IMG/VR virus record: IMGVR_UViG_3300047478_000138
Span: 1-64,000 of that record
Length of the DNA: 64,000 nt
Reading direction: 5' to 3' (one strand)
DNA from: a virus
The notes under the pieces were generated by a model that searched no databases, was not told the DNA's origin, and saw only the letters and a list, made by a program, of their open reading frames with translations. A program made the translations under genes and the position numbers. Positions 2,925 through 43,490 of this stretch are shown one piece after another. Position 1 is the stretch's first letter. Each line of letters begins with the position of its first letter.

Positions 2925-2950
2925 TATAAAAAATGGTTTAAAGGTTTCGG

Positions 2951-15842: not shown

Positions 15843-16661
15843 ATGGCAGCAACAGCAATGGAATATAATCCAGGACTACCAAGAGATTTAGATGTAACAC
15901 CGATATTTACAGACTTGATGAAAGCGGCTACAGGACAGAGTAGTATCTACCTGAAAGCAAAAGCAACAGTATTAGACTATGTAGAAAAAGGTCACTTGAC
16001 TGAGGTGCAAAAAGCAGAAGTATTGGCTAAAACAATAACTGACTTAGCAAGTGGAATGACTGCACAAGCGCTACAAGCTGCAGTGGAAATAGCTAAAGAA
16101 AATAGAGATGCTCCAGTAGTGTACTTGAAAGCAATAGAAGATACAAAATTGATTAATGCACAAATGCAAAAAACAATAATAGATGCTAATAAAGCTGATA
16201 TGGAAACAGACTTGACATTGATGGCAATAAAGAAAGCTCAAGCAGAATTGACAATAGACTACGGAGTAACTGCACTTGCAGCAATGCCAGATTGGACAGT
16301 AGCACTAGCATATAATGCATCAGGTACTAAACATGAGTCAATTAAAATGGCACAAGCTAATGTATATAATGGGTATGCAACAGCGTATAGACAAAATGGA
16401 ATTGTACTGCCAGTAATTGACTCAGTAGGTTGGTTAACATCAGGAACATCAGCTGATGAGGTTGGATTAAACTATTGGCAAACGAAAGTTGCTGAGAGAC
16501 AAGAAAAAGGATTTGATGATAATACTAGACAGCATGTGGCTAATAGTTCTGCTACAATGGTAAGTATGTTGTTAAGCTCTGAAGAGGCTGCATTGGTTGA
16601 TGATGCATCTGCTGCATTAGCTAAGTGGACTGCGGCTGTTGATTATTTGAATAACGCATAA
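15843..16661 (+). CDS. Virion structural protein (N4 gp54-like)
   Basis: IFTDLMKA...KG.L...AEV, QTKVAERQEKGFDDN motifs; synteny. Confidence 0.65.
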   Translation: MAATAMEYNPGLPRDLDVTPIFTDLMKAATGQSSIYLKAKATVLDYVEKGHLTEVQKAEVLAKTITDLASGMTAQALQAAVEIAKENRDAPVVYLKAIEDTKLINAQMQKTIIDANKADMETDLTLMAIKKAQAELTIDYGVTALAAMPDWTVALAYNASGTKHESIKMAQANVYNGYATAYRQNGIVLPVIDSVGWLTSGTSADEVGLNYWQTKVAERQEKGFDDNTRQHVANSSATMVSMLLSSEEAALVDDASAALAKWTAAVDYLNNA

Positions 16662-16675
16662 TTAAGGAGTAGCAG

Positions 16676-18424
16676 ATGTATATTGAAAGTGACTTCGTAA
16701 ACACTGCTACGCTGGATTTACAAGCCAATAGGAAAATGCATAATAGAATATTGAAGTATTGGCCTACTACAGTGCTTAATGGGGTTACTGTTATGGCTAA
16801 CCTCAATCTATATGCTGGTGGTGCTGTACAAGAGAGTCATGCGTATAAGCGATTGTACAACATACTTGGCATTAGTGTAGAAGATTTAAAGAAAGAAAAA
16901 TGGGTAGGTATAGAAGAGTACTACTTATATTTTAATCCTGTGCAAGGCACGTATGATGATATAAGTAACGAACAATTAACTACGTATTTAGAGTTTCAAG
17001 CTCCATTTACTGTAGAAAATGTACCAGTAGTACCACCATTATTACCGGTGTATGATAGGTCTGCATGGTTTACAGCGGAGATAAGCTATGAGCCATTGTT
17101 CGTTAATAGCGATGCAAATGTGCTAAGTGATGCTAGTATTATAGATGCAATTAAAGCCGATCCTTATATAGTTGAATACAGTATTGCAGATGAGCATGTA
17201 CTTACTGCATTGGCATTGCTGGATCGTAACGAGGTTATATTTGAGAGAGAGTTTAAGGTAACACATAGAAATCTTACAAATGTTACAGCTATAGCACAGA
17301 CAGATAGAACAAATACTGCTAGCTTTTTGAAAGAGGTTAATATTGAATTTAAGTTTAGACGCAAACCTTTTATATCACAGATTACGTATGATGTGTATTT
17401 GAATACTATACGTAGTGCTGTTTATAATTCAGTTAATAGTTTTCCTAACTCAGTTAAATTACAATTGCTAGAAGTATATCATGGTATAGTGCCGTTTATT
17501 GACAATGAGATATTATATCAAGGCAGATACCGATTAGATGGGCTACTGGCTATGAAGAGTAAAGAGTTTAATAAGACTATTACTGCCAGGATTAAGACTG
17601 GGTATAAGAAAAAGAAAGTTAGTACTTGGAAGAAGCTTGTCACTATAGTCTTAACTATAATAATAATAGTGGTAGCTGTACTAGTCGCTATACCTACAGG
17701 TGGGGGTTCTATAGCCTGGGCTAGTGCAGCTATGGTACTAACTGTTGGCTCACTGGCTATGATGGGATTATCAATAATACTTGCTAAGAAGGACCCTGCT
17801 TGGGCTGCATATATGGGAAAAGCCTCCCAAGTGTTGGGAATAGCTGCAGCTATAGTAGGAATAACTGCTATAGTGCAAAGTATGGCACGCGCTGCTGCTG
17901 CTGGTGCTACAGCGACGAAAGAAGCGGCTACACAATCACTAATAGCTGCGGGTAAAGAAGTAACAGTAGAGTCATTAAAAGCAGAGGCATTAGTAGTGGC
18001 TGGTAGAATGAGCTTTGTGGAATCACTAAAAGAGATAACACTTGAAAGTATGGGTGATATGCTCATAGACTATGTAAAAAACGCAGTCAGTACTACTACT
18101 TCCACTAATATGCAGAGTATGCTTAATGCAGCTACTAAAGGATTCCAACTATATGTTAAGCATATAGACCCTCCTGCTGATGGACTAGATTATATGACTA
18201 GACAGATAGAAGAACAAGAGCAGCAATTAGAGGACTTATCTAGTGCAGGACTAAAAGATAAAATGGACTATACATTCAGTAGTCCGTTTTACAATATCTA
18301 TGATTTCAATGAGATAATGCAGGCAGTTCCACATAGGATGACCCAAGGTAAGATTGATGATACGTTCAATAAATACTATGATGGTATAACAAGTAAAGTT
18401 ACTTATCGAGGATACTTAGGTTAA
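16676..18424 (+). CDS. Virion protein with TM helices (N4 gp53-like)
   Basis: YKKKKVSTWKK followed by long hydrophobic segments; no cysteine; synteny upstream of the ejection proteins. Confidence 0.6.
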   Translation: MYIESDFVNTATLDLQANRKMHNRILKYWPTTVLNGVTVMANLNLYAGGAVQESHAYKRLYNILGISVEDLKKEKWVGIEEYYLYFNPVQGTYDDISNEQLTTYLEFQAPFTVENVPVVPPLLPVYDRSAWFTAEISYEPLFVNSDANVLSDASIIDAIKADPYIVEYSIADEHVLTALALLDRNEVIFEREFKVTHRNLTNVTAIAQTDRTNTASFLKEVNIEFKFRRKPFISQITYDVYLNTIRSAVYNSVNSFPNSVKLQLLEVYHGIVPFIDNEILYQGRYRLDGLLAMKSKEFNKTITARIKTGYKKKKVSTWKKLVTIVLTIIIIVVAVLVAIPTGGGSIAWASAAMVLTVGSLAMMGLSIILAKKDPAWAAYMGKASQVLGIAAAIVGITAIVQSMARAAAAGATATKEAATQSLIAAGKEVTVESLKAEALVVAGRMSFVESLKEITLESMGDMLIDYVKNAVSTTTSTNMQSMLNAATKGFQLYVKHIDPPADGLDYMTRQIEEQEQQLEDLSSAGLKDKMDYTFSSPFYNIYDFNEIMQAVPHRMTQGKIDDTFNKYYDGITSKVTYRGYLG

Positions 18425-18489
18425 GTTAAAGCTTTATTAGATATAATGAGTGTATTTAAGTGCACACAAATACAAAATAGGAGATTACA

Positions 18490-18993
18490 ATGGCAGTTCA
18501 AATGGGATATAAACAAGATGGCACATATGGAATACTAGATGCAGGAGATATAATGGCAACAAATCAATCCGCATTTGCAACTACTAATCAAATAGGTTCT
18601 GTGGCAGTTGAGCCAGTAGGGCCTGCACAAACAGTAGAGTACAATGGTAATATATACGGAATGGATCCAGGATCAGTGAAATTGATGCAAAATGATGCAG
18701 AATTTGAAGGTATGAAAGGAATTCCAGATAGTACTACAGATACCTCTAAAGATCTGCTGGGAATGAATCCAGATCAGTGGGGTAGTGCTATGAAAATGGG
18801 ACAAATCGGAATTGGTGCTGGGCAATTAGGGCTAGGATTAGCCAGCTACTTCCAAAATAAAGGATTGGCTGATAAACAAAAAGAATTGCTTGGGCAACAA
18901 ATTGAGAGTAATAGGTCCGAAATTGATGCAAGAAAGAACTATAGAAGTGCACTAGATGGCTTCGGTTCACAATCACAACCGACAAGGATATAG
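18490..18993 (+). CDS. Ejection/internal virion protein (N4 gp52-like)
   Basis: Gly-rich GIGAGQLGLGLASY segment plus coiled coil; no cysteine; synteny. Confidence 0.6.
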   Translation: MAVQMGYKQDGTYGILDAGDIMATNQSAFATTNQIGSVAVEPVGPAQTVEYNGNIYGMDPGSVKLMQNDAEFEGMKGIPDSTTDTSKDLLGMNPDQWGSAMKMGQIGIGAGQLGLGLASYFQNKGLADKQKELLGQQIESNRSEIDARKNYRSALDGFGSQSQPTRI

Positions 18994-18994
18994 T

Positions 18995-20722
18995 ATGGCT
19001 AAGTATCAAGTAGACTTCTCTGGAGCTAGAAATATAATTGATCCACTAGAAGGTGTAAGAAACTCACTACAGCAAACTAGTACTACACTAGGTCAAATGA
19101 TTGGTCAAGATGAACAACGTGCAGAGAGATTGCGTGATGAAGCATATAGACGAGATGCACTAGCACTACAACAAACTGCTGCTAAAAGAGATGCTGATAA
19201 ATACAATCAAGAGTTAGCTGATAGAACATTTGCACAAAAGACATTTGCTGCATACAATCAAACTCCAACAAGAGATTATTCAGCATTGCCTACACAATTA
19301 ACTGACACAGAAAAAGGTAAATCAGTAATTAATGATATGTCACTAACATCTGAAGAATTGGCTAATCCAACAATGCCATCTGCAATTGCAAAGATGAAAA
19401 ATCAACAGATACTGTCGGACGTACACGACAAATCTGGGCAAACATTACTTGAATCAGAAAGGTTCAAAGCTGCAATGGCTTCTACTGCTAAAGGTGCTGA
19501 TGGAATGATACCATTAAGTATGCAAGAGAAGTTGCTTGGAATGGAGTCTGCAGAACGATCTGCAATGACTGCTAAAAGTGAACGTGCTCAAAAAGCTGCT
19601 GAATTGCTGTCTAAAGATAGAAGTGAACTGCAAAGAGCTGGATTAAAGGATGCTACAACATTGGCTGCAGCTGAGATTAGAGCTGCTGAAGGAAAAGGTA
19701 GTGGTAATAAAAAGGATAAAAAAGATGATACTCCTAAATGGAAGGACTATGAAACACTTAAAGAAGGGTTAAATAGCAAATATAGTTTCTGGAAATTTGG
19801 GGATGCAGAAAATGTAGCAGCTGTAACTTCCGCAGCAGCTGCTGCAAAAATGAGTCCTGATGAGTTATATGGAATAGTTAGTGGGTTAGAAGAAAGAGGA
19901 TTAGATAATACATTTAATAGAGATAAAGTGCTTACTACAATAGCTGCTAAAAAACCTGTATTGACAGGATCTGAGGGCACAGGATCTACTACAAAAACTC
20001 CTGGAAAGTTTGCTTCACTAAACCCAATGGCTGGGTATGATGAATTGCTGAAACAGAAAGATGCTGCGTATAGACAAGCAGTGGCAAATACAGCTAATAC
20101 ACCCCTAACACAAGCAGATGTACTTGCTGCAAGAAGTGCCAAAGGAGCAACACAGTTAGACGAGTTGATTGCTAAACTGGGAAGAACTGCTGGCAAAGCT
20201 GAAGTTCAACCGGAAGTTAAGAATACTGCTGTGATGCCTTCACCAGAGGTTAAAAAAGAGGAATCTAATACTGCCAAAAATGAAACTGCAGGCACTAAAA
20301 AAGAGGTTAATATTAAGGAATTATTCGCAACTGTACCTGATAAAAAAGAAGCTGATAATAAAACAAAGACATTAATAGATGTATTAGGAATACCTCAGAC
20401 TAATGTGCCTACGGGTCAAACTAGTAATGAATCGGCACAAACTCCATTAGTTAATCCGAGTTGGTCAGAGAAATCAGCTATGGCTAAACAAATAATGGAA
20501 GATCAGAACCTGTCGTGGGAAAAATCATGGGCACAAGTTGAACAAAAAGTACGAGATGCACAAGTAGTTACTGGAGTATCTGCTGCGGCTAAAGAATTAG
20601 CCCAAAAAGAAGGAATACCATATGAACTAGCTGTGCAGAAACTTGCTGATTTGACAAATATGAGAAATCCAAGCACTACACTACAAACTACTGCAAGCCC
20701 AATAATGAGACAAGGTAGATAA
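18995..20722 (+). CDS. Ejection/internal virion protein (N4 gp51-like)
   Basis: Start at MAKYQVDF after an AAGGA RBS; Ala/Lys/Gln-rich, no cysteine; directly upstream of vRNAP. Confidence 0.6.
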   Translation: MAKYQVDFSGARNIIDPLEGVRNSLQQTSTTLGQMIGQDEQRAERLRDEAYRRDALALQQTAAKRDADKYNQELADRTFAQKTFAAYNQTPTRDYSALPTQLTDTEKGKSVINDMSLTSEELANPTMPSAIAKMKNQQILSDVHDKSGQTLLESERFKAAMASTAKGADGMIPLSMQEKLLGMESAERSAMTAKSERAQKAAELLSKDRSELQRAGLKDATTLAAAEIRAAEGKGSGNKKDKKDDTPKWKDYETLKEGLNSKYSFWKFGDAENVAAVTSAAAAAKMSPDELYGIVSGLEERGLDNTFNRDKVLTTIAAKKPVLTGSEGTGSTTKTPGKFASLNPMAGYDELLKQKDAAYRQAVANTANTPLTQADVLAARSAKGATQLDELIAKLGRTAGKAEVQPEVKNTAVMPSPEVKKEESNTAKNETAGTKKEVNIKELFATVPDKKEADNKTKTLIDVLGIPQTNVPTGQTSNESAQTPLVNPSWSEKSAMAKQIMEDQNLSWEKSWAQVEQKVRDAQVVTGVSAAAKELAQKEGIPYELAVQKLADLTNMRNPSTTLQTTASPIMRQGR

Positions 20723-20790: not shown

Positions 20791-23700
20791 ATGAGCATAG
20801 ATAACTACTTAATAGACTTAGCTAAAAGTACAGCAACTGATGTGAGTACTGACTTAGCATCCGCACTAACCCCTAAAATAGAGCCAGTTGAAGAATCTGC
20901 ATTCAGTAAAGTTGGTTTGCTACAAGGAAGAACTCAACAAAAACTTGCAAACTTAAGTAGTAAAAGTACATTAGTAGATCCGCTAAAATACAATCCTGTA
21001 CAAACAAGCGTACAATCAATGACTGTTACAGATGCAGATACGGTAAACCTTAGTGGCACAGGTGCAATGCGTGTACTAAATGCAAATGCATACGAGACAA
21101 CTAAACAAGATAAATGGTTCGAAGAGCCACGTAATGTGCTACGTATGGAAAAACAACGAAATGAGTTGGCAGGTGAGTTGGGTGTTCCTGCGGCACAAGT
21201 AACAAATGATATGGTGTTCAAAGTTGGTGAACAACAAAAACAAAATGTACAAAATACTATGCAAGGCACGGTAAGAGATAGTGAGGGAAAATTGCTACCA
21301 TCACTAGTAAGTGCTGATGTAGCAACTAATAGAACTGGATTAGTAGAACCAACAAATAATTATGGTAGGGACTTGGGAGCTGTAACAAAACTTGGTGGAA
21401 TGTATAGTACAATAGATGCTGCTGGAAATATAACAGGTGAAAATAATGGTGTAGTAAAATTAGGAGATACTCCAAATAAAATGAATATTGACACAGCACT
21501 TATAAACTTAAGAAATGCTCTACGTACAAGAGAGTCAAGTGATGACTATAGTTCAGTAAATAAACTGGGTTATACAGGAGCATACCAATTCGGTGCTGCT
21601 AGATTAGCAGACTTAGGAATGGTGAAACCTGGCACTACAAATAAACAATTAAATGAACCTTCCGCATGGACTGGTAAGTATGGTGTTGCAAATAAAGAAC
21701 AATTCCTGCAAAACCCAGAAGTACAAGATGCTGTAATGAATGAACATCTAAAAGATTATGCTAAAAAATTGTCCCCAGAAGCTACAAGTATGGAAGATCT
21801 AACAGGCAAGATAGCTGCTGCACACTTGCTTGGAGTAGAAGGTGCAAAAGACTTAAATGCAATGGATGCTAATAAGACAACTGGTAAAGAATACTATGAG
21901 TTAGGAAAATTAGCAGGTATGAGTATTGAAGATAGACTGCGTGCTGAGACTAATAAAAAGCATGCGGGTAGTGCAAGTGAATATGTAGACAGAGTACAAG
22001 GTTCATTAGCAAAAGTAGGTGCTGATGCTGCTAATATGATTGAGAAGTTGGTAGGAAAAGAAAATATAGATAAATATAACACATTTGCAAGTGATGTTGA
22101 GAAGTACTTTGGCGGAGATGGAGATGTTGGGTATATAATAGGTGCAAAAGGTGAGATTAAAGGCACTGATAAAAATATACAAGACTTCAGAAACAGAGAA
22201 GTTGCTGCTATAGAAATGGGGGTTACACAAGAGACCCTAGACAAGCATAATGCAGCTATGACAAGTGGGTTAAAAGATTGGGAAAAAGCTGAAAGTGTAA
22301 CAGATTATATAAAAGTAATGGCTAGAATGGTTCCAGAGGTTCCAGGAATACTTGCAGATAGTGCTGGTGAGATGGCTGGATTAATGATTCCAGGAGGAAT
22401 TGGGTTAGTTGCTGCAACAAGAACATCAAATTATGCTGAAGAGTTCAAAAAGAATAATGATAGAGACATGACTCCAGGAGAACTGGCTAGAACATTCTTC
22501 GGTGAATTGGCTGTACTCGCACCAGAAAAAGTGCTTATAAAGACTGGGGTTGCTGGAGTATTCGGTAACTTATCAAAAGGTGGTAGAGCGACTAAGATTG
22601 CAACTGCTGCAGGTGGAGAGGGATTACAAGAACTTGCTGAAGGCACTACTGAGAAGTATGCTACTCAAAAAGTTGGTGATAAAACACTACTTGAAATAGC
22701 AACAGATCCAGAACAAACCTTCGGAGCTGCATTGGGAGTAATAAGTGGTGGAGGACTAGCTAGTACTGGTATAGTGAAAGATGTGGTATCTGCAGTACCT
22801 GGCACAGTTAAAAAAGGCATAGGATTAGCAACTGAAATACCGCTGCAAAAAGATACATTAGCAAACACAAGTGAAGATATAGAAGAGCCAATTGACTTGA
22901 AAGCAAAAATGTCAAACATAATGAGTAGAGTAGCTGAAAATGGTGTGATAAGCACAGCAGACATGACATCAATTAAAAAGATGGAAGAGCAATTAATATC
23001 TACACCAGAAGAGGCACAAGAGCAAAAATTAGCTACAATTAATAGCTTAAAAGATAAATACAAAGCTCAATTGCTAGACCCAGAAAATGATACAGTAGTG
23101 CTAAAGTCAAAACGTGACTTGATGTATGCAATGCAAGACATTGGTGAAGTAGATGATGCTGTAGATGAAGTGCTATATGCTAAAGCAGTAAAAGCAGGAA
23201 TAGTTAAAGATAAAGAAGAGTACATAAAAGTCAAAAAAGACTTTGCAGTAGTTGATGCAGAAGCTAAAAGTGGACGAATTGGGTACCTAACATTAACCCG
23301 AGACTTAGAAAATTTGCTTGATGCAAGTTCACCAAATACTGGTAAAGTAGACAAGTTAGTAAAACGATTAATAAACTACGAGAAAACTCAGCAAGATTAC
23401 TTAAATAAAGGCACTGAGCTATACAACAGAGTGCAAAAAGAGATTGAAGCATACAATGCACCTAATGAAACAAATCTGCCAAGAAAAACTCCTAAAAGTG
23501 CTTCATCAGTAGAGATGGATAATGGATACAAATTCACTGTATATACAGAACTAGATGCTAATGGTAAAGTGCAGATAAAATCAAATAAAGCACTGCAAGA
23601 TATACTAGAAGCTAAAAGATTAAACATAGTTGGAATCAAAGAAGGATTACAGAGTGTAGCAGGTAAATTAGATAGTATAGGGCTTAGTGCAGCTGATACA

Positions 23701-26700
23701 GGAGTTACCAATAAACCAATAATAAATGCTAAAGGCAACAAATGGTTAGACGCATTTGCTAAAGACTTAAAAGGCTCAGAAAGTACTCCAGAAGCAACTC
23801 ATATATACGCGATTGGCTCAGGTAAGCGTGCAACAGCAATTAAAGAAAGTAACCTAAGCGGAACAAACTTGACTGACTACACAAAAGATAGTGTAGTATA
23901 CATGACAATGGATAAAGCAACAACACAAGATGATGTTGATAAACTAAGAAAAGAGTTGTCAAATAAAAAGAGCGATTTACATAAAGCAATAGAAGCCGCA
24001 AAAGAAGCTGGTGCGACAATACGATTAGATGCTACACTAAGACCTAAATCAAAAGATAAGGCAGGCAATGCCGTTAAAGATCCACATGCACTAGAAGCAC
24101 TAAGATTACTGCAAGAAGCATTAACAAACTACGGTAATGAATACAGATCAGTACCAAGTGAAACAAGTAACTTCTCGTTCACATTCAAGCCTAAAGCTGA
24201 AGCAGAGACCCTAAAAGAATCTGCTAAAAAGGTGAAAGAAGCAAAAGAAGCTGTAACTAAGAAAGTTGATGTGGAAGGATACAAAGAATACAGAAACCTT
24301 GATAGTGTAAAAGCACAAGAAGCTTATGCAAAAAACTTATGGAATTCAGATGAAGCCATACAAGCTCAATACAAAAGTACTGATACTAAAGAAGGATGGG
24401 AGAAATTACTAAATAGATTCCATACAATTAGTGCAAATAGTGTGAAAGAAATATCTGCTGAATTAAGTAAAGCAAATGACTTAGAAAAACAGATTAAAGA
24501 TACCACTGGATTGACTGGAGTTGATAAAACTCAAGCAGTTATGTTCAATGAAGATATAGAAAATCAAATAGCTGAATTAAAAGCTACTATAGATAAAAAG
24601 TATGCTAAAAAGGACTATGTAATTGCTGAAACTAATGCAAAAGAAACATCAAAACACTTAGAGTCAATTGGTGACATAATCCAAGAGATAAAAGAGATTG
24701 CACAAAATACAAACTTAGATGAAGAAGCTAAAGCTGCTGCAATACAAGAATTGCTAAAAGATGTTGATGGAGATGTGGCTAAAACAATACTAGACACAAG
24801 TATATCAAAAGGTAAGAAAACAGATACATACAAAAATTACATAGTACCCTTGGATATAAACAACATAGTAAAAGTTGGTAAAAATACTGTGCTAAGTGTG
24901 GCTCCAGTGGAATACTTGTTCAAAAAATTAGCAAATCATCCAGAAATGAGTAGTGTAAGATACATAGATGATATGAAAAAAGCATTCGAGAAACTGTTCG
25001 TAGTGAATGCTGATAAACCATACGTTAAAGGTGAAGGTGGCACATTAGAATTGCAACTAAGAACAGAATCTGCTGTAGGGTTATTCTACAATAAAGCTGG
25101 TGAGTTAAATGATACTATGCTGATGGCTGGACAACTTGCGTTAGATGAGTATATGGCTAATAATGGTGAAATGCTAAATCCCGCATATAAAAGTAGAGAA
25201 AACATAGCACAAATGCTTGGTGTTATAGAGTCACAGTTAGGAAAAAATCAAGAAAAACTGCTCCGAGACAAAGGTATGTTCTATAAAACAGCGGCTAATA
25301 AAGTCGGTAAAGCAGCACTACAAAAGATGGGATATGTGCTTAAAAAAGAGGCTACTGATGTAGAACGCGAGGCATATGATAGATTAGCTGCTGATGTAGG
25401 CAATAGAATACTATTGGCTGGTGTTGCTAATGGAATACTTGAAAGAGATTCAATTTCCTCAAATGAATATGGTGAAGCAATTGCTAAAGATTCACAAAAA
25501 TCGACAGCAAAAAGATCTGAGTTCGTTGATTCAGATGCTGACATAGCATTCATTAAATTCACTAAAAAGTTTATTGCAAAGAACAAAGATGAGGTTAGTA
25601 AAAGAAATGTGAGAGCTGATGTGTACAGAGAAATACACTCATTAATTGGGGATGAAAATTCATTCAGAAAAATGCCTAGCGAGAATCCAATTAAAACTCC
25701 AAGATATAAGAAAGAGCAAGTTGCTAAAGACATTGCCGGAATGCAAATACCTGGAATGGTAAATACAGATAAAGATAAAAAGACTCCGGCACAATTCATG
25801 GAACACTTAGTAGGTATTAAATGGGAAGTAAATAATGCATTGATAGCTAAAATGCTAAAAGATGTGAACATAGATGTACTAAAAATGCACTTAGGTTATG
25901 CATCAGCTGAAGACTTAAATAACATGAGCTTCGATAGTAAAGAATCTGCAGAAGCTAAGAATATGGACATAGAGAAAAGTATAGAAGAGTTAAAAATGTT
26001 CGTGGATGAAAAAGGTCAAATGAATGCAGAATTGTACTTCGACTGGTTCTACTCAAGTAATGGTAGATATATGATGGATAGTAATACATTAAATCCACAA
26101 ACTGATAAGTTACATAGATTCCTAATACAACCAGCAGAGCATAAATTGAAATACACTGTAAAGGATGGTAAGTTCACTAAAAAGTCAATGGAATCATTGG
26201 TCAACTATGCGATAGCACAAGCATTTGGATTTAAAGTAGATAAAAAGTCTACGGTTAAAATAATGAAAGCTGGTGAATTGCTAAGAAAAGCTGATCCTAA
26301 AGCATTAAGTGAAGTGTTATTCGGAAGTAAAGGTAAAAATGGTGTTAAAGATGTGCATACACACTTCAAACTAACAGAGGATGGTACAATAATACTACCA
26401 ACTACAGAAGGATACAAAGAGAATCCTGCAATGGAGTTCGAACCAGATCACATATCACATACGCTACAAGCAATTGACATGCTTGAAAAGATTAAAAAAG
26501 GCGGAACATTCACATCATCCCTAACAGCAGAGTTCGATGCGTTAACAAGTGGATTCGGATTAAAATTACTACAAATACCAATCATAGGTAATGAATTGGT
26601 TGGGTTGTGGGATTGGCTAAATAAAGTGGGTGTACTAGAAAAAGGTAAAGCAACTGCAAATAGCATGAATGACATACTGGACGGTTCAGGACAAAAGTTC

Positions 26701-28284
26701 TACGATAGTTACCAAACATTGGCTAAAGAAGTTGCGGTAACTGAAGAAAGTGTACAAGAAGCAATAGCGAATAAAGGCAAAAACTACAAAAAACTAAGTG
26801 CAAATGTAGTAAATAGCTTGTGGAATGATGCTGGATTAGGTGCGCTTATGCCAAAAGTTAGTGATGATGGCACGGTAACATCTGCACTACGTTCATTGTT
26901 CAAAGACCCGTTTATGACATTCAACTACAGTGCTGGAATAGCATCAATTAAACGTAGCTTGGCTGGTGTACTAACAAGTGGGTTAATAGATAGAATAGTT
27001 GCCGGAGAAAAAGGTACAGAACAACCTGTTAAAGCATTGATGGGATTGATAACTGCTGATAAAAATAATTCATACAAAGTACCTAAAACAATTGAAGAAT
27101 TCCAACAATTGCTAAAAGAGGTTCCATTAGATAGAATCAAAGTGAAATCCAAGAATTTGCATACATTAGAAGAGTACTTGAATGAAGTAATGGACTTAAC
27201 TTACGGACACTCAGTTGAGACAATAATGAAAGAACACTTCCAAGAATTTATGGATGTGCATGATACAGTTAATAGTGCATTCAAAATCATGTTCACTGCT
27301 TGGAAACAAGAGTATGATAAAGAAGTAAAACAAGTGCCAATAGGTAAGTTAAATGATGATAAAGTAAAAGAGATACTGGACAGATTAAAAGATAAGTTCC
27401 CATTAATAAAAAGTCCATTGTCAGACGAGTTGAATGAAGGTGTTGCAATATACAAAAGCTCAAGCTTAACACCAAGTGACGAAGAAGTCAGATACATGCC
27501 TTCAAGAGCTACTACAGATGCTACAGCAATGAAAAGCATTGGAGTAAAAAATAAAGAGACTGGTGAAGGAGTAGCTTCAGTTAAAGTGCGTCACATGATT
27601 AGAACATTCGAAGCAGCGATAAGTTCAGGTTCAGTTGTGCCAATACACTATATAGACGGTGCGTTGATGGCTCAATTAAATGGTGAAGCAGTAACAGCAA
27701 TACATGATGCGATTATGCCTCCACTGAACAAGTCACTAGAAACAATTAAAAAGTACAATCAAGCAATGTTTGATATATCGAAGTCGTATAGTTGGATAAA
27801 AGAAATCAATGAAATGCTCAAACGATTGGATGTAAACACATTGGATAATACTGTAAAAGTAGAGGTTAAAGAGAAAGCAGATGGTAAAACAACTTATCTA
27901 GAGAAAGGGTTAAAAGATGCTGTTGAAGAGATGCAGAGTAAATTAGAAGCATTGACTGAGAGAGTAACAACTGCTAGAGAAGATGTGTTTGCTCAAATAG
28001 GCGCAATAGGACATATGGTGGGATTACCTGGCAGTATGTGGACAGCTGAGGGAGTTAAGTTAGTTAAAGTAGTAAATAAGCAAGAAACTAGTACAATTGA
28101 TGAAGAGAAAGTTATACTTGCTGTGTCAATAATAGCTAAAGAATGGCTTAGTAAGAATGATTCAAGATTAAGTGCTCCTGTAAAAAATAAAATTAAAACA
28201 ATAATTACAGAGGCATATGGTAAAGCAGATGGGAAACAAGCACATACTAAGCTTGCTACATTAATAGAAGAAACTTGTAAATAA
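20791..28284 (+). CDS. Virion-encapsidated RNA polymerase, segment 1 (SNase-like + lysozyme-like + T7/N4-type RNAP core)
   Basis: SSNGRYMM, NPQTDKLHR, motif A EFDALTSG, motif B RSLFKDPFMTFNY, PIHYIDG and motif C IHDAI; 2497 aa; single Cys at the penultimate residue. Confidence 0.88.
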   Translation: MSIDNYLIDLAKSTATDVSTDLASALTPKIEPVEESAFSKVGLLQGRTQQKLANLSSKSTLVDPLKYNPVQTSVQSMTVTDADTVNLSGTGAMRVLNANAYETTKQDKWFEEPRNVLRMEKQRNELAGELGVPAAQVTNDMVFKVGEQQKQNVQNTMQGTVRDSEGKLLPSLVSADVATNRTGLVEPTNNYGRDLGAVTKLGGMYSTIDAAGNITGENNGVVKLGDTPNKMNIDTALINLRNALRTRESSDDYSSVNKLGYTGAYQFGAARLADLGMVKPGTTNKQLNEPSAWTGKYGVANKEQFLQNPEVQDAVMNEHLKDYAKKLSPEATSMEDLTGKIAAAHLLGVEGAKDLNAMDANKTTGKEYYELGKLAGMSIEDRLRAETNKKHAGSASEYVDRVQGSLAKVGADAANMIEKLVGKENIDKYNTFASDVEKYFGGDGDVGYIIGAKGEIKGTDKNIQDFRNREVAAIEMGVTQETLDKHNAAMTSGLKDWEKAESVTDYIKVMARMVPEVPGILADSAGEMAGLMIPGGIGLVAATRTSNYAEEFKKNNDRDMTPGELARTFFGELAVLAPEKVLIKTGVAGVFGNLSKGGRATKIATAAGGEGLQELAEGTTEKYATQKVGDKTLLEIATDPEQTFGAALGVISGGGLASTGIVKDVVSAVPGTVKKGIGLATEIPLQKDTLANTSEDIEEPIDLKAKMSNIMSRVAENGVISTADMTSIKKMEEQLISTPEEAQEQKLATINSLKDKYKAQLLDPENDTVVLKSKRDLMYAMQDIGEVDDAVDEVLYAKAVKAGIVKDKEEYIKVKKDFAVVDAEAKSGRIGYLTLTRDLENLLDASSPNTGKVDKLVKRLINYEKTQQDYLNKGTELYNRVQKEIEAYNAPNETNLPRKTPKSASSVEMDNGYKFTVYTELDANGKVQIKSNKALQDILEAKRLNIVGIKEGLQSVAGKLDSIGLSAADTGVTNKPIINAKGNKWLDAFAKDLKGSESTPEATHIYAIGSGKRATAIKESNLSGTNLTDYTKDSVVYMTMDKATTQDDVDKLRKELSNKKSDLHKAIEAAKEAGATIRLDATLRPKSKDKAGNAVKDPHALEALRLLQEALTNYGNEYRSVPSETSNFSFTFKPKAEAETLKESAKKVKEAKEAVTKKVDVEGYKEYRNLDSVKAQEAYAKNLWNSDEAIQAQYKSTDTKEGWEKLLNRFHTISANSVKEISAELSKANDLEKQIKDTTGLTGVDKTQAVMFNEDIENQIAELKATIDKKYAKKDYVIAETNAKETSKHLESIGDIIQEIKEIAQNTNLDEEAKAAAIQELLKDVDGDVAKTILDTSISKGKKTDTYKNYIVPLDINNIVKVGKNTVLSVAPVEYLFKKLANHPEMSSVRYIDDMKKAFEKLFVVNADKPYVKGEGGTLELQLRTESAVGLFYNKAGELNDTMLMAGQLALDEYMANNGEMLNPAYKSRENIAQMLGVIESQLGKNQEKLLRDKGMFYKTAANKVGKAALQKMGYVLKKEATDVEREAYDRLAADVGNRILLAGVANGILERDSISSNEYGEAIAKDSQKSTAKRSEFVDSDADIAFIKFTKKFIAKNKDEVSKRNVRADVYREIHSLIGDENSFRKMPSENPIKTPRYKKEQVAKDIAGMQIPGMVNTDKDKKTPAQFMEHLVGIKWEVNNALIAKMLKDVNIDVLKMHLGYASAEDLNNMSFDSKESAEAKNMDIEKSIEELKMFVDEKGQMNAELYFDWFYSSNGRYMMDSNTLNPQTDKLHRFLIQPAEHKLKYTVKDGKFTKKSMESLVNYAIAQAFGFKVDKKSTVKIMKAGELLRKADPKALSEVLFGSKGKNGVKDVHTHFKLTEDGTIILPTTEGYKENPAMEFEPDHISHTLQAIDMLEKIKKGGTFTSSLTAEFDALTSGFGLKLLQIPIIGNELVGLWDWLNKVGVLEKGKATANSMNDILDGSGQKFYDSYQTLAKEVAVTEESVQEAIANKGKNYKKLSANVVNSLWNDAGLGALMPKVSDDGTVTSALRSLFKDPFMTFNYSAGIASIKRSLAGVLTSGLIDRIVAGEKGTEQPVKALMGLITADKNNSYKVPKTIEEFQQLLKEVPLDRIKVKSKNLHTLEEYLNEVMDLTYGHSVETIMKEHFQEFMDVHDTVNSAFKIMFTAWKQEYDKEVKQVPIGKLNDDKVKEILDRLKDKFPLIKSPLSDELNEGVAIYKSSSLTPSDEEVRYMPSRATTDATAMKSIGVKNKETGEGVASVKVRHMIRTFEAAISSGSVVPIHYIDGALMAQLNGEAVTAIHDAIMPPLNKSLETIKKYNQAMFDISKSYSWIKEINEMLKRLDVNTLDNTVKVEVKEKADGKTTYLEKGLKDAVEEMQSKLEALTERVTTAREDVFAQIGAIGHMVGLPGSMWTAEGVKLVKVVNKQETSTIDEEKVILAVSIIAKEWLSKNDSRLSAPVKNKIKTIITEAYGKADGKQAHTKLATLIEETCK

Positions 28285-28294
28285 GGATGTGTAA

Positions 28295-29521
28295 ATGGGA
28301 TGCATAATTGACGAACTTAAAGAATTGATTGAAGAAGGTACAAAAGAAGTACTGAATAAAACTGCAAAGACTCAAATAGAGAGCTTTATAAAAGCATTAG
28401 AGGCTGCTAAACCTAAGATTGATCCAGAAACTCTACAACTTAATATGGATTATGATGATAGTAAGATAGAAGAAGCTAGAGTAGTTAACTCTAATAGAAC
28501 AGCTCAAATGAATGCTCGAAACGAAAGAATTGAAGAGTCAAAAGATAGTTTAGGTTGGAGTAAATATAAAGAAAAATTAGAATCTGTAAATGGAAAATAT
28601 AACAATTACTACGGAGCAATGGAAAAAGTAATAATAGATTTAGTAAATCCAAAAGTAATACCTAATGTAGTTGGGTTAATGCTAGAAGAAGTATTTAATG
28701 GTAAATTTGATGTAATAGTAGCTGGAGATTATGATCCAGATACACATACTGTGCAAATAGCTGGAAAACCTAGTCAGTTAGAAGTAGAATTTGCTGTAAA
28801 GGAAGGGTTAGAAACTGTTGGATTAGAGTTATTTGAAATGACAGAGGATAACTTAGACCACTTACATCCATTACTAAAAGAATTTGTTGATATAAATACT
28901 GCTAAAGTACTCACTAAAATAGTGGCTGATATAGAGTCAATTAATGGAGGACATACAGTAACTCATGAAATGATTCATGCTGGTGCATTAAGCTTCATGA
29001 GAAATAACCCAGAACATGAAGCAACTATACGAATAAATGAACTATATAAAGAAGCTATGGATAATGCAGATAACATACGAAGTATGGTTCGTGAAAATGG
29101 GGTGTATAGTACATACTGGCAAAAGAATGTAGAAGAATTTCTAGCAGAAGCACTAAGCAATCCAGGATTAATGTATGCCCTAAGTAACATTAAAACAGTA
29201 GGTAAAGAAAAGCTTAGTAAAGGTTTGCTACATGAATTAGTAAAAACATTAATAGAAATGCTTGGCTTAAATAAAAAAACTGAGGATAACTTGTTAGAAT
29301 TTACAATGGATGGATTTGCAGCAATAATGGAAGCTCAAGCTGTAAAAGCAAGTGTACCAGTAGATAAAGAATTGCGCCAATTGGTAAAATCTAGACATGA
29401 GGTACAAAACACTAAAGAATCACTTATAGTTACTAAAGCTGAGAAAGAGGTTAAAGCTGGTACAATGTCAGTAGAAGATATAAAAAAACTAGCTATGGAA
29501 GTGGCTAAGGAGTGTAAGTAA
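28295..29521 (+). CDS. vRNAP-locus segment 2: zincin-like metallopeptidase module
   Basis: HEMIH...EEFLAEALSNP; begins MGC and ends CK. Confidence 0.7.
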   Translation: MGCIIDELKELIEEGTKEVLNKTAKTQIESFIKALEAAKPKIDPETLQLNMDYDDSKIEEARVVNSNRTAQMNARNERIEESKDSLGWSKYKEKLESVNGKYNNYYGAMEKVIIDLVNPKVIPNVVGLMLEEVFNGKFDVIVAGDYDPDTHTVQIAGKPSQLEVEFAVKEGLETVGLELFEMTEDNLDHLHPLLKEFVDINTAKVLTKIVADIESINGGHTVTHEMIHAGALSFMRNNPEHEATIRINELYKEAMDNADNIRSMVRENGVYSTYWQKNVEEFLAEALSNPGLMYALSNIKTVGKEKLSKGLLHELVKTLIEMLGLNKKTEDNLLEFTMDGFAAIMEAQAVKASVPVDKELRQLVKSRHEVQNTKESLIVTKAEKEVKAGTMSVEDIKKLAMEVAKECK

Positions 29522-32500
29522 TGCCATGTGATATAGATAAAAAAGCTAGATTAATGAGATTGGCTCAAGAAAAGTTAGAGATGCTAAAAGAATTGCAAGA
29601 AGATGGCTATGAAGAGTATTATTCACAAGGCGAGGATATATACTCTGTAGAAACTGAAATAGCTAACATGCAAGCTATACTAGAAGAAGATATTGATAAC
29701 CTAGTAATGAATGTCAGATTAGCTGATACTAATAAATCTGTTAAACGCAGAGACTACTCTACTATAAGAAGAACTACTAATGGCCATAAATCAGCAATAA
29801 ATGCGTATAAAGTAGAGGTAAAAGATAATGGAGATTATGTAGTAAGTTATCAAACTGCTAAAACTGCTAAGGATAAAACAATTACAATCCCTAAAAATGG
29901 TACTATGAAAAATGGTACTCAGTACAATGTATATGATATAAAAGACATGCTAGCAAAAAATGATGTGCTAGGAGCTAAAGCCAGTAAAGAAAAACCAAGC
30001 TTCGACAAGTTCACAGAATTAGAAGCTGATATACATGGAAATCCAGAGAAGATGGTAGACTTGCTCAATAAAATTAATGAGTTAGATGCATCTCCAGAAA
30101 CTGAAGAGCATATGGAGTACTTGAGAGGATTGATTAAACAGTTAAATCCAGACTTCATGCGTAAAGCTAAAACATACATACTAGAAAGTGCGATAGAAAA
30201 TGGTGGTATGGTAATTGGTAAAGACATAGGTGTAATGGTTGGTAGAAATGCAAAAACAGCAGGCAATCAACAGAGTGCAGCTGAAGCATATGCGCATGAA
30301 GTAATACATGCGTATACAAAGTTTGCGGTAAAGTTGGCTAAAGATGGTGATGTAGAGGCACGTAAAATACTACGTGAATTGCAATATGTAAAGAAAGTTG
30401 CAATGGAAAATATGACATGGAAAGACTTTCTGCCAAAAGACAGCATAGACGCAACTAAAGAAGAGGCTGAAGCTAAAGAAAGATATGACTACATATTCGA
30501 TGTAAACACAAGAGGATTAAAGGACTGGAAGCCTCACGGACACTCAGAAGATGAGTTCATGGCACATATATTGACTAACCCAATAGTAAGTAAAAAAGCT
30601 AAGTTCATAAAATTGAAAGAACAACATAAAGAGATGACATTATGGGAACAGGCAAAAGAACTGTTCGACACAATAACTGGATGGTTGTTGGGAGACTTCA
30701 GATTCAAAGATAGAACTAAAAATGTGCAAGAGTTAACACTTGAATTGGTTGGAATGTTTGCAGAGTTCAATAATAAAGCAGTGACAGAAGCTCGTAAAAA
30801 AGAGAATGTAATTGAGAAGCTAAAAGATCAATTCGATAGTATAGAAGAAGATACATCAGCATGGATAGGTGAACAGTTAGATAAAATACTCCCGAAAGAG
30901 GCTAGAATTGGACCTAAGCCAAGTAATCCATTGGCACAAACAAAATGGTATGCAACCGCATTCGCTAAATTGATGCTAACACCAATAGGTAGAAAAGAGT
31001 TGTCAAAACTGTTAAAAGCTATGGGAATGCCAATGTATGGGTCAGTGCAATCAATAATCAGAGACTTCGTAGAATCAGATCAATTAGAGAAAACAATAGA
31101 TTGGTTAGCACTGCAATCTGATAAAGTAGATCAATCAAAAATGAACATAATAGGCACAGTAAAACAACACTTAAAAGACGCATTCACAAAACCGTTAAGT
31201 GATTATGAAGAAGAAGCAATAACAAAAGTTCTGCTAGATACAGATTTGCAAAGCATCAGTAAAGAATATACAAACTTGCAGTTAAGAAATATGCTAACAG
31301 ATGAAGAGACATTGCAAAAAGAAATAAGTAAAGCTAAACATGAGCTAAAAATGCTAGATGAAAAGAATTACAACTGGCATACAGATCAAGCAACTGGATT
31401 AGGATACTACTTAGCCACTGGTAAAGGACACTTAGCACAAAATACAAGTGTGCTTGGAATTGCTAAAGGACACTTAGGTGCAGAGTATAGACGTGGATGG
31501 AAGCATAAGAAAGGTGACTTAGAATTGCTGCTAAACAAAGTAAGTACGCTAGTAGCATTGGCATATACAGGAAAACAAGAGAAAGCTAAGATAGCAGAAT
31601 TGCTAAAAACTGAGCGTAAGGGAGTAACAACAGTATTAGATACTGCTAGATTCCTAGAGAAAGAAGCTAAAGAAACAATATTCAAAGATCAAGAGTTATT
31701 CATGGTTAAGGGATATACAAAAGAATTGTTCGATGATAGTATGACAATGGAGATAGTACCAGTAAGTAAACATGATGAAATGGTAAAAAGAGGATTCAAG
31801 AAGATAAAAGATATGGAGTCACATTCATTAGTTAGAACTAAAGAGAAGTATGCAATGTATGTGTCAAACGCATTCGCAACAAATGAGTGGCATAGAACAG
31901 CAACTAGATTAACTAAGATGCAGACGAAAGGTACTAGCTTGAAAGAGCTATACTATAATGAGCAAGATAGTTACTCTGAGAAAAGACACTTGATAAACAA
32001 GTTAAAAATAGATCAAGCTAGATATGCAATAGTAAAATCCCAGTTAGATGGCACATTCGACATAAACTCAATTGAGTATGGGTTAATGCCATTGCTAGAC
32101 GAGTATGGTGAAGTTGTAGACTACAGATACATGATGGAGAAAGATGCTAAGAAAGACTTGCTAAAACAAGACACAGGAATGAGTAATGTGCTTGGTGCAA
32201 CTAGAGGTGCAATACTAGATAAGCAAGACACAATAGAGCATAATAAGAATGTGCTGAAGTTGATAAAAGAGGATGCAAAAGAGAATTACATAGAAGGTAG
32301 TGACATAGGTAAAAATAGTATGGCATACATACTACTAACACCGAATAGCATAAACACACACATAAAAGATCTGTGGGAAGTGCTTCCAAAAGAGTTCAAG
32401 AAAGAGGCAATGAGAAATAGTTACAAAGGATTGGCTGTAAGAGAGGATATGCTGACTAACTACTTCGGATATAGACACTTAAGCATCACAAATGTAAACT

Positions 32501-33591
32501 GGCTAAAAGCGATAACACCAGGATTCATACTAAACATGGTAAAAATAGCTGAAGCAATGTGGATTGAGTTCATAAAAATAACTAAAGTGGACATACTAAT
32601 AAAAATGCCATTTGTAATAGTGGGGAATATAATAAGTAACATAATGTACGGAATTAGTACAGGCAGTGATCCGATGGAAATACTAAGAATGTACAGAGAA
32701 AGTACGATAGATGTACGAAAGTACTTAAGTAAGCATAGAGAGTTGATTAAGTTAGAAGAAGCCGGCAAGATTGGAAAAATTAGCCAACATGATAAGAATA
32801 GAATTGAAGTGCTAAAACAAGAGTTGAAAAAAAGTCCGATACATGAGTTATATGAATTGGGAATCTATCAAGCGATAGTAGAGGATGTGAGTCAAGAGGA
32901 ATTAAGTAGTTCAAATAAGCTTAAAAAAGAGTACAAAAAAAGAACTTCAGCAATACCTAAAGTCATAAAAGATGGGATGAATTGGATTTACTTAACAGAA
33001 GAAACTCAGTACTACAAAGTAATGACTGAAGTGCTACAGATGTCAGACTTGGTTGCAAGAGATATAGAAAATCGTAAGTTAAAAAAGGTAATAGAACAAC
33101 AAGCAAAAGGTGAGAAAAAGATACCAATGTGGTATGTGAATTATGTGGAAAATGCGAAGGATGAAGTAGCTACGAGACTGCAGGCTACAATGGTGTGGAA
33201 GGATAGAAATAGAAAGATGGATGCAGAGGAGAGAGCATACTTCAGGGAAGCTGCTAAGAACTACAGGCTAAACAATGTGCTAAATGCCTTCGTAAACTAC
33301 AATAAGCCATCTGGCAGCATGGAAGAATACTTAAATAAGATGGGGTTCATAATGTTTACAAAATATGCGAAAAGAATACAGAGAGTAATAGCACAAACTG
33401 GAGCAAGATATCCAATACGTACATTAATGTTGCTGTTGACAGATGCATATGTGCTCGATATGGATACAATACAGGATCAGAGCATATTCACTAAGAGTTG
33501 GTACAATTTGACTCCACAGTGGCCATTAGAGCGTATAATGGATGTGTTCGTACCACCAATTATACAACCTTCGACTTATCGTATAATTTAG
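29521..33591 (+). CDS. vRNAP-locus segment 3: zincin module plus N4 vRNAP C-terminal-like region
   Basis: HEVIH...DEFMAHILTNP; VREDML..YFGYR, SPIHEL...G, FVNY..P, GF.MFTKY..RIQRV motifs resembling vRNAP C-termini; begins MPC. Confidence 0.75.
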   Translation: MPCDIDKKARLMRLAQEKLEMLKELQEDGYEEYYSQGEDIYSVETEIANMQAILEEDIDNLVMNVRLADTNKSVKRRDYSTIRRTTNGHKSAINAYKVEVKDNGDYVVSYQTAKTAKDKTITIPKNGTMKNGTQYNVYDIKDMLAKNDVLGAKASKEKPSFDKFTELEADIHGNPEKMVDLLNKINELDASPETEEHMEYLRGLIKQLNPDFMRKAKTYILESAIENGGMVIGKDIGVMVGRNAKTAGNQQSAAEAYAHEVIHAYTKFAVKLAKDGDVEARKILRELQYVKKVAMENMTWKDFLPKDSIDATKEEAEAKERYDYIFDVNTRGLKDWKPHGHSEDEFMAHILTNPIVSKKAKFIKLKEQHKEMTLWEQAKELFDTITGWLLGDFRFKDRTKNVQELTLELVGMFAEFNNKAVTEARKKENVIEKLKDQFDSIEEDTSAWIGEQLDKILPKEARIGPKPSNPLAQTKWYATAFAKLMLTPIGRKELSKLLKAMGMPMYGSVQSIIRDFVESDQLEKTIDWLALQSDKVDQSKMNIIGTVKQHLKDAFTKPLSDYEEEAITKVLLDTDLQSISKEYTNLQLRNMLTDEETLQKEISKAKHELKMLDEKNYNWHTDQATGLGYYLATGKGHLAQNTSVLGIAKGHLGAEYRRGWKHKKGDLELLLNKVSTLVALAYTGKQEKAKIAELLKTERKGVTTVLDTARFLEKEAKETIFKDQELFMVKGYTKELFDDSMTMEIVPVSKHDEMVKRGFKKIKDMESHSLVRTKEKYAMYVSNAFATNEWHRTATRLTKMQTKGTSLKELYYNEQDSYSEKRHLINKLKIDQARYAIVKSQLDGTFDINSIEYGLMPLLDEYGEVVDYRYMMEKDAKKDLLKQDTGMSNVLGATRGAILDKQDTIEHNKNVLKLIKEDAKENYIEGSDIGKNSMAYILLTPNSINTHIKDLWEVLPKEFKKEAMRNSYKGLAVREDMLTNYFGYRHLSITNVNWLKAITPGFILNMVKIAEAMWIEFIKITKVDILIKMPFVIVGNIISNIMYGISTGSDPMEILRMYRESTIDVRKYLSKHRELIKLEEAGKIGKISQHDKNRIEVLKQELKKSPIHELYELGIYQAIVEDVSQEELSSSNKLKKEYKKRTSAIPKVIKDGMNWIYLTEETQYYKVMTEVLQMSDLVARDIENRKLKKVIEQQAKGEKKIPMWYVNYVENAKDEVATRLQATMVWKDRNRKMDAEERAYFREAAKNYRLNNVLNAFVNYNKPSGSMEEYLNKMGFIMFTKYAKRIQRVIAQTGARYPIRTLMLLLTDAYVLDMDTIQDQSIFTKSWYNLTPQWPLERIMDVFVPPIIQPSTYRII

Positions 33592-38083: not shown

Positions 38084-38553
38084 TAGTCCTCCCAAAATTT
38101 GTGTGTAATATCTGTATGTGTGAGTAAATCATACATACGCTGATTAGTTGTTCGATTTGTCAATCCACCCATACTTGATACATAAGGTCCAGTCTTGATA
38201 TAACGACATACATTAAGTATCTCTGGATGCACATCAGATAACTCAGCTCCTGTGTATAGGCATACTTGCAAATTCAGTGAGTTAACAAAAGTTGCTAGTT
38301 CAATAAATTCCTTGTGATGCTGTTCACCACCAAAAAAGACTACACAAGTTACTGTGTATGCTCCTGTGTGAGGCGATTGGTACTTATTAAGAAGCTTCAA
38401 CAATACATCAGAAGTAAGAGGATATCCAACATCAGTTTGTAAGTATGCTGAATGACATCCACTACAACGGAATGGGCAATTAGATATGCTGATTGCAAAA
38501 GATGTCTCTCCTGGGACTTCCTGAAAAGAAAGTGTGTAGCCTGTGTATTTCAT
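38083..38553 (-). CDS. nrdG: Class III RNR activase (radical SAM)
   Basis: FQEVPGE...CPFRCSGCHS, GGE, LYTG, KTGPY...TNQR. Confidence 0.9.
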   Translation of the reverse strand: MKYTGYTLSFQEVPGETSFAISISNCPFRCSGCHSAYLQTDVGYPLTSDVLLKLLNKYQSPHTGAYTVTCVVFFGGEQHHKEFIELATFVNSLNLQVCLYTGAELSDVHPEILNVCRYIKTGPYVSSMGGLTNRTTNQRMYDLLTHTDITHKFWED

Positions 38554-38586
38554 GTGGTCCTTAGGTAACAAGTGTGGTTGGATAAT

Positions 38587-38664: not shown

Positions 38665-38820
38665 TTAGTTAAAGTCATCAATATCTCCCTCAGCTGCTAT
38701 GGCTTGATGCTGTGCAATCCATTGAGCATCAAGTGCTTCAATTGCTGCTTGCTTGACCTCATAAGATGCTTCCGACAATTCGTAATTCCTGCGTTTAGTT
38801 AAGTAATCAGATTCGGTCAT
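38665..38820 (-). CDS. Hypothetical 51-aa protein (not in ORF track)
   Basis: ATGA overlap with the nrdB stop; MTESDYLTKRRNYELSEASYE... Confidence 0.5.
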   Translation of the reverse strand: MTESDYLTKRRNYELSEASYEVKQAAIEALDAQWIAQHQAIAAEGDIDDFN

Positions 38821-43228: not shown

Positions 43229-43229
43229 G

Positions 43230-43490
43230 CTAGTTAAGTACTCGTTTAAGTGCTGCTGAAGGGCTGAACTTAACTGTCTTAGTTGTATACGGATTGCCTG
43301 TACCAGGTGCTTTACCAGAACGTGTGACTGGTTTGAAGATACCAAATGTACTGCTAATAGTAACAGAATTGCCTGCTGCAAGTTGCTTACCTATAGTAGA
43401 TTCTAAATGATTCAAGATTGCTGAAGCAGCTTTCTGTGACTTAACTTCTGGGCAATTTGCCAACTCGATTAATAGTTCTTTTCTAGTCAT
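43230..43490 (-). CDS. hup: HU-like DNA-binding protein
   Basis: MTRKEL...FGIFKPVTRSGKAPGTG...VKFSPSAALKR. Confidence 0.85.
   Translation of the reverse strand: MTRKELLIELANCPEVKSQKAASAILNHLESTIGKQLAAGNSVTISSTFGIFKPVTRSGKAPGTGNPYTTKTVKFSPSAALKRVLN

Follow-up and report, generated by a model that had tools for sequence, protein, structure and literature searches.

Why should the only four cysteines of a virion RNA polymerase (vRNAP) encoded in three pieces all lie where the chain is broken? The question is raised by positions 20,791 to 33,591 of a 64,000-nucleotide stretch of viral DNA, referred to here as the window, which covers positions 1 to 64,000 of the IMG/VR record IMGVR_UViG_3300047478_000138 and lies inside an 80.8-kb IMG/VR contig. 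An earlier note on this DNA had proposed that the cysteines stitch the three products together by inter-chain disulfides. Comparative analysis of the sequences shows that these terminal cysteines are the only ones, that they are under strong selection and that they track the breaks in the chain. As to their role, the facing termini probably dock and, after the particle has left the reducing cytoplasm, become linked by an inter-chain disulfide at each break (1-S-S-2-S-S-3); judging from sequence comparison and from one structural analogy, we put the probability of this reading at about three in four.

The features of the locus are given below, those within each open reading frame (ORF) following it. 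The two cysteines that face each other at a break are together called a clasp, and amino acids are abbreviated as aa.

20791..28284, + strand: ORF of piece 1 of the split vRNAP, 2497 aa, containing the N-terminal region and the RNA polymerase domain
21505..21963, + strand: lysozyme-like domain at residues 239-391 of piece 1, within its N-terminal region, matching phrog_27932 'baseplate hub subunit and tail lysozyme', E 1.8e-31
24103..28023, + strand: RNA polymerase domain of piece 1 (residues 1105-2411), matching phrog_2206
28276..28278, + strand: Cys2496 codon (TGT) of piece 1, position -2, tail half of clasp 1
28283..28287, + strand: ribosome-binding site AAGGA, 7 nt before the ATG of piece 2 (28295), from sequence reading
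28295..29521, + strand: ORF of piece 2, 408 aa, a middle module with an HExxH motif
28301..28303, + strand: Cys3 codon (TGC) of piece 2, which starts MGC, head half of clasp 1
28964..28978, + strand: HExxH of piece 2 (H224, E225, H228), invariant in alignment A4
29513..29515, + strand: Cys407 codon (TGT) of piece 2, which ends ECK*, position -2, tail half of clasp 2
29519..29523, + strand: TAATG stop/start overlap of pieces 2 and 3, from sequence reading
29521..33591, + strand: ORF of piece 3, 1356 aa, a head of about 165 aa starting MPC, then the vRNAP C-terminal domain (CTD)
29527..29529, + strand: Cys3 codon (TGT) of piece 3, head half of clasp 2
30295..30309, + strand: HExxH of the CTD in piece 3 (H259, E260, H263), invariant in alignment A1

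A script count over the 4261 aa of the three translations (2497 + 408 + 1356) found exactly the four cysteines that the earlier note had read by eye, at residue 2496 of piece 1, residues 3 and 407 of piece 2 and residue 3 of piece 3, all of them at the internal junctions. The two outer ends of the chain, at the start of piece 1 and at the end of piece 3, are free of cysteine as the note had stated, and the AAGGA site and the TAATG overlap are present where it had placed them. Cysteine makes up 1.12% of the residues in the other ORFs of the window (169/15097), a frequency that predicts about 48 in 4261 aa. With four cysteines present, the probability that all fall within the 20 junction-terminal positions is about 5e-10. 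The tail of piece 1, about 80 aa closing with ETCK*, is poorly conserved, and the Cys2496 column is invariant in an alignment of 10 piece 1 homologues.

The pieces were assigned to the N4-type vRNAPs by profile comparison. The profile phrog_2206 (virion RNA polymerase) matches residues 1105-2411 of piece 1 over profile positions 823-1968 (E 5.8e-56), which places the central single-subunit polymerase domain of this family on piece 1, and it matches residues 186-1326 of piece 3 over profile positions 2272-3378 (E 1.9e-144). The large CTD with its HExxH motif is likewise recognised in piece 3: besides the phrog_2206 match and the invariant H259, E260 and H263, the C-piece profile A1 matches the solved structure of N4 vRNAP, 11fw_A (E 1e-38), and the C1 subdomain of the N4 CTD has a conserved HExxH (PMC13434306). 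Two other family traits are absent, since three ORFs with their own starts replace a single polypeptide of about 3500 aa, and four terminal cysteines, in an interior free of them, replace a chain with none. In piece 1, D1916, K2038 and Y2046 (eight residues apart) and the pair H2305-D2306 are invariant across the 10 homologues; by our own assignment, their contexts read like motifs A, B and C of T7-type polymerases. The piece 1 profile gave no match when compared with solved structures by HMMER, even at E 10. One piece 1 homologue, P0051, carries PF00959, and peptidoglycan may be cut by the lysozyme-like domain at the leading end of the chain during ejection.

Just before the variable tail of piece 1 (28020-28090, + strand, residues ~2408-2420) stands a motif, H-M-[AV]-G-x-P-G/x-x-[MVY], which is kept in many N pieces and marks the end of the conserved polymerase region. 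The same motif at the start of P0133 makes this protein look like a fragment of a junction-fused, cysteine-free protein.

Piece 2 is less easily placed. Its HExxH (residues 224-228) is followed by an EF.AE.LSNP-like stretch, and its profile shows a weak likeness to the C1 (HExxH) region of the CTD (hhalign probability 64%, E 6.6e-5), with no significant match to solved structures. An AlphaFold2 model built from four sequences was poor (mean pLDDT, the predicted local distance difference test score, of 48), with terminal helices at residues 2-37 and 393-406, of low confidence. Since the likeness to the CTD is weak and the model poor, the label of protease is unsupported for this piece, and the protease modules of the earlier note are at most putative for either HExxH module. 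A tblastn search with piece 2 against phage records gave no match, nor did a nucleotide search of the junction region against the same records; searches for related loci with piece 2 alone and with P0242 alone returned nothing.

If the cysteines belong to the breaks, they should be found at the breaks of other split polymerases. Among 13 distinct split loci, which hold 16 junctions and share 25-45% identity, a cysteine was present on both sides of the junction in 16 of 16 cases, 0-3 residues from the C-terminus upstream and at residue 3-6 downstream. Their codons are a mixture of TGT and TGC, the stops differ, and the intergenic gaps range from -11 to +12 nt. Three-piece vRNAPs were also found in L003 and L013, with one cysteine at each end of the middle piece, and the middle piece of L013 is unrelated to piece 2 of the window.

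The same distribution held in larger sets. A cysteine occurs within the last 4 residues in 95 of 98 piece 1 homologues, 94 of which have no other cysteine; the three lacking it comprise two proteins of fused size and one fragment. For the C pieces, a profile search of 1.84 billion representatives was made and the best 150 matches were taken, about 115 of which were C pieces with a single cysteine at residue 3-7. The C-terminal cysteine was present in all 25 piece 2 homologues and an internal one in none, and the 19 complete homologues have exactly two cysteines, one per end. Overall, 95 of the 96 cysteines of the tail set are terminal, in 236,077 residues, as are 124 of the 127 of the head set at the N-terminus, in 173,207 residues; the tails (about 80 aa) and heads (about 100-165 aa) are otherwise poorly conserved. 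The purge of cysteine is strong, not absolute: the N piece of L013 (36-7598) has an extra cysteine at residue 1289, P0159 has a close pair at 1091 and 1093, and the fused proteins P0249 and P0253 have 5-6 cysteines each.

The fused relatives gave the converse result. No cysteine at all was found in the fused proteins of L012, L021, L022 and L024-L028, and that of L019 has one, far from the linker. Within the best 150 matches, none of the 15 representatives of fused size has a cysteine near the linker, and 11 of the 15 are entirely cysteine-free. The pairing predicted by the earlier note for every split, with no counterpart at fused linkers, was thus borne out. Intermediate situations served as natural controls. 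L004 joins a homologue of piece 2 to the C piece in one protein, and that junction is without cysteine. In P0041 about 1000 extra residues are fused to the N piece, and the only cysteine lies 4 residues from the end, at the C-terminus thus created. In L017 and L018 the chain is split elsewhere, between the N-terminal domain (NTD) and the polymerase (RNAP): the upstream pieces (836 and 845 aa, phrog_2206 positions 31-736) have their sole cysteine at -2 and the downstream pieces (2338 and 2409 aa) have theirs at 6, while the RNAP/CTD linker is fused there and has none. The two vRNAP genes of these loci lie 1.8-2.4 kb apart, with other ORFs between them.

These intervening ORFs (434 and 623 aa; 7920-9224 in L017, 7327-9198 in L018), one or two in number, are unrelated and have no PHROG match, which implies that one functional chain can be encoded by genes that are not neighbours. 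Both loci also encode a virion-module protein of 741-745 aa (phrog_2220, of unknown function; 813-3050 in L018, 1497-3722 in L017) that starts M-x-x-C, this N-terminal cysteine being the only one of the L018 protein; it could be another clasp half. A tblastn search with the L017 NTD piece against phage records gave no match, so that no cultured phage with the NTD/RNAP split was found.

To place splits and fusions in a phylogenetic context, a FastTree phylogeny was built on the last 1000 residues of 140 CTD-bearing proteins; this quick tree was used only for counting pairs. Fused and split forms interleave on it, and well-supported branches force at least 6-7 changes. Among 8 phylogenetically independent split/fused pairs, a cysteine near the break changed in the same way in about 7 and in the opposite way in 0 (sign test, p ~0.016).

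What could such a pair of cysteines do? In gp50, the one-piece vRNAP of phage N4, two flexible linkers (residues 907-1007 and 2102-2123) connect three folded units (PMC13434306), and the NTD/RNAP and RNAP/CTD breaks described above coincide with these two linkers. In the N4 capsid the protein is probably loosely folded, as beads on a string, and it is thought to be threaded NTD first; gp50 is ejected after gp51 by way of an interaction of gp51 with the N-terminal region of gp50, and this region is then anchored in the inner membrane (PMC13434306). In trans, RNAP and CTD contact each other weakly, and the polymerase is subject to autoinhibition by the CTD (PMC13434306). Fused vRNAPs from 191 genomes have a cysteine frequency of 0.00075%, and the gene of N4-like phages lies in an operon of cysteine-free ejection proteins (PMC11445570).

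A precedent for a bond at such a position comes from cyanopodophage A4 (Anabaena phage A-4L). In the map of its pre-ejectosome obtained by cryo-electron microscopy, a C-terminal helix is docked in the partner protein and locked there by a disulfide between Cys1715 of gp27 and Cys5 of gp26 (PNAS 2025, PMC12002296). In the A-4L genome (NC_024358) the two genes are adjacent, Cys1715 is the sole cysteine of gp27 (1717 aa, position -3) and Cys5 the sole cysteine of gp26 (1114 aa). The window repeats this layout twice, with the upstream cysteine at -2 in pieces 1 and 2, Cys3 in the first residues of pieces 2 and 3, and no cysteine inside.

We therefore consider the following sequence of events. The vRNAP is encoded as three pieces, the first carrying the N-terminal region and the polymerase, the second an extra HExxH module and the third the CTD. 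At each break stands a clasp, made up of one cysteine 0-3 residues from the C-terminus upstream and a second at downstream residue 3-6. What follows is conditional: the facing ends would dock, probably as terminal helices, and the disulfides would form after the particle leaves the reducing cytoplasm. The 1-S-S-2-S-S-3 product in the capsid would be one nearly linear chain with stubs of 1-3 residues, its clasps standing in for the flexible linker peptides found in N4 gp50. A chain cut at its linkers would lose its continuity in the loosely folded state unless tied again, and a link close to the termini would restore an almost linear chain; the tie would thus hold the pieces together in the packed state, for co-packaging, and would let the leading N-terminal region draw the remaining pieces through the tail as one thread. 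After entry into the host cytoplasm, reduction would break the bonds and leave separate proteins; their separation could free the polymerase from autoinhibition by the CTD.

The inter-chain disulfides of the earlier note thus gain strong comparative support from the cysteines present at every break and missing at fused linkers, and a precedent in phage A4; the chemistry itself stays at the level of a probable reading, by comparison and by analogy. Several points weigh against it. The sequences are equally compatible with a disulfide, a metal site common to both ends and a bond to a different partner, and the A4 proteins are not homologous to vRNAP, which makes the precedent an analogy, a likeness in mechanism and not in descent. 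Assembly occurs in the reducing cytoplasm, so that bond formation has to wait until afterwards; among 20 further ORFs of the window scanned against Pfam, neither a thiol oxidase nor a thioredoxin was found, and the anaerobic ribonucleotide reductase (RNR) encoded there implies that the phage may often live where spontaneous oxidation is slow. Finally, a few relatives have one or two stray internal cysteines (L013 piece 1, P0092, P0159, P0179), and a few C pieces lack the N-terminal one, most of these being apparently truncated or mis-started.

The closest competitor retains the pairing and changes the bond: the cysteines could be joined through a shared metal ion, such as zinc in a zinc hook, or by another thiol link. 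The comparative data would fit any pairwise thiol chemistry, a metal bridge could form in the reducing cytoplasm, where assembly takes place, and the anaerobic RNR of the phage would suit it. We nevertheless regard it as improbable. Each terminus offers a single cysteine and the sequence logo shows no conserved His, Asp or second Cys adjoining it, so that a four-ligand metal site is not apparent, and the only solved case of this terminal arrangement, that of phage A4, is a disulfide. Slightly less credible still is the idea that each cysteine binds a partner other than the neighbouring piece, be it the same piece of another copy, the portal or an inner capsid protein, and serves to anchor the cargo, with no chain being rebuilt. 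Sequence alone cannot name the partner, and N4 packs about 4 vRNAP copies per capsid (PMC13434306). An outside partner would not account for cysteines standing on both sides at every break, numbering exactly two in middle pieces and never occurring at the outer ends; moreover, the neighbouring virion proteins are cysteine-free, and the A4 bond joins the products of adjacent genes.

Explanations that dispense with pairing fare much worse. The sequence TGTAA[A/G]TAA occurs at both junctions of the window, and the cysteine codons might have been a by-product of a nucleotide signal there (a promoter, a signal for translational coupling or a scar left behind by a mobile element). Relatives vary in the codon (TGT or TGC), in its distance to the stop or start, in the stops and in the gaps, for which reason the TGTAARTAA motif was rejected as the cause, and the pair retained by L017 and L018 across 1.8-2.4 kb rules out an origin in translational coupling or a DNA motif. 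Chance or an assembly error is opposed by the placement probability given above and by the split stop of the Alteromonas phage AltAD45, which was verified by polymerase chain reaction (PMC3821669); this whole family of explanations has next to nothing left in its favour. The same must be said of protein trans-splicing or another peptide ligation through the terminal cysteines, which would yield one true polypeptide. Intein nucleophiles are indeed cysteines; those at issue here are set in from the ends by 1-3 residues and lack flanks of intein size, and polypeptides of 270 and 175 kDa were seen on gels of AltAD45 virions (use of reductant not stated; PMC3821669), which argues against ligation. 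A Pfam scan found no family at E 0.01 in pieces 1 and 2, two weak unrelated matches in piece 3 and no intein/Hint domain. Split inteins were rejected on the lack of an intein-like Pfam match and on the separate AltAD45 polypeptides.

Two further candidates were tried and dropped. Lipidation of a CaaX-like or lipobox-like kind was rejected, as the cysteine is mostly at -2, a signal peptide is absent and the positions vary. Exposure of an N-terminal cysteine by removal of the methionine was rejected as well, the residues before the cysteine often not being small.

The setting of the locus is that of a virion gene cluster, with portal, capsid and tail genes upstream of the vRNAP pieces and replication genes downstream. 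Other features of the window are as follows.

11820-12659, + strand: homing-endonuclease-like gene directly after the major capsid gene (phrog_314, E 1.7e-20)
15843..20722, + strand: four ORFs (272, 582, 167 and 588 aa) directly upstream of piece 1, cysteine-free by count
39435-40175, - strand: HNH_3 homing-endonuclease-like gene

The absence of cysteine from the four upstream ORFs (0 in all four) agrees with what the earlier note had said of them. They have weak PHROG matches only, to families of unknown function, and their position and lack of cysteine make them candidates for co-ejected proteins. Beside the HNH_3 gene, an ORF of 129 aa (38817-39206) has a match to the RNR small chain that is below the Pfam cut-off and confined to the C-terminal part (positions 217-273); nrdB may therefore be interrupted by the endonuclease gene. 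The anaerobic RNR is NrdD (E 1.4e-157), and the 4Fe-4S protein encoded beside it is probably its activase; the window also encodes a second RNR large subunit, with an RNR barrel domain and an ATP cone; the regions 36251-38571 (- strand) and 41006-43381 (- strand) cover both RNRs. The presence of both types suggests hosts that meet oxic and anoxic conditions.

How much of this was already on record? In the literature searched, we found no paper stating a rule of terminal cysteines for split vRNAPs. The earlier note had gone further and held the arrangement to be undescribed, which is too strong: the gp27-gp26 disulfide of phage A4 was published in 2025, and the paper on AltAD45 (2013) noted the cysteines of a split vRNAP. 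What was known is one example of the chemistry, reported for A4 as a structural detail with no general rule drawn from it (PMC12002296). New, as far as the literature searched goes, are the regular use of such connectors in split virion polymerases, their gain or loss with splitting or fusion, and modules that bear both types of connector.

The exit of a 3500-residue polymerase through a tail of 35 Å is an open question for N4-like phages (PMC13434306). That many lineages have cut the chain at its linkers, always with one cysteine per cut end, suggests that continuity of the chain matters for packaging or ejection. A broader, tentative reading, which we hold to be rather less likely than not to be right in full, is that the terminal cysteine pair is a portable connector grammar. 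It would allow piecewise encoding, plug-in modules such as the HExxH cassette with both connector types, re-linking into a thread pulled through the tail, and a redox trigger that frees the polymerase from the autoinhibitory CTD and from the membrane-anchored leading end. The authors of the AltAD45 study took the cysteines as a sign of a protein that is not injected and did not remark on their terminal positions (PMC3821669); end-to-end disulfides would correct this published view that cysteines mean a split polymerase that stays out of the host. For annotators, the rule offers a means of telling true split vRNAP genes from frameshift errors.

Among the known systems close to the locus are N4 gp50 and the other vRNAPs of the Schitoviridae, such as gp71 of Pseudomonas phage DEV, with which it shares a homologous RNAP domain, an HExxH-bearing CTD, a cysteine-free interior and a setting among virion genes. 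The N4 and DEV proteins are single chains of about 3400-3500 aa with zero cysteines, whereas the window has three chains, four terminal cysteines and an extra HExxH module. Identity to known isolates amounts to only 24-31%, the Alteromonas AD45 podoviruses coming nearest among cultured phages (31% identity). These phages, vB_AmaP_AD45-P1 to P4, have their vRNAP split at the same RNAP/CTD linker: in AltAD45-P1 a piece of 2481 aa with its sole cysteine at -3 is followed by one of 1409 aa with its sole cysteine at 4. They differ from the window in having two pieces, the middle module being absent.

The comparison with phage A4 is of another nature. Its gp26 and gp27 are not homologues of vRNAP (gp26 against the CTD profile gives an hhalign probability of 0.6%, and the PHROGs differ), there is one junction and no polymerase, and the proteins form a folded pentameric ring in contrast to a loosely folded chain. 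What the two systems have in common is the arrangement: giant internal or ejection proteins, encoded by adjacent genes, with the sole cysteine near the C-terminus of the upstream product and near the N-terminus of the downstream one.

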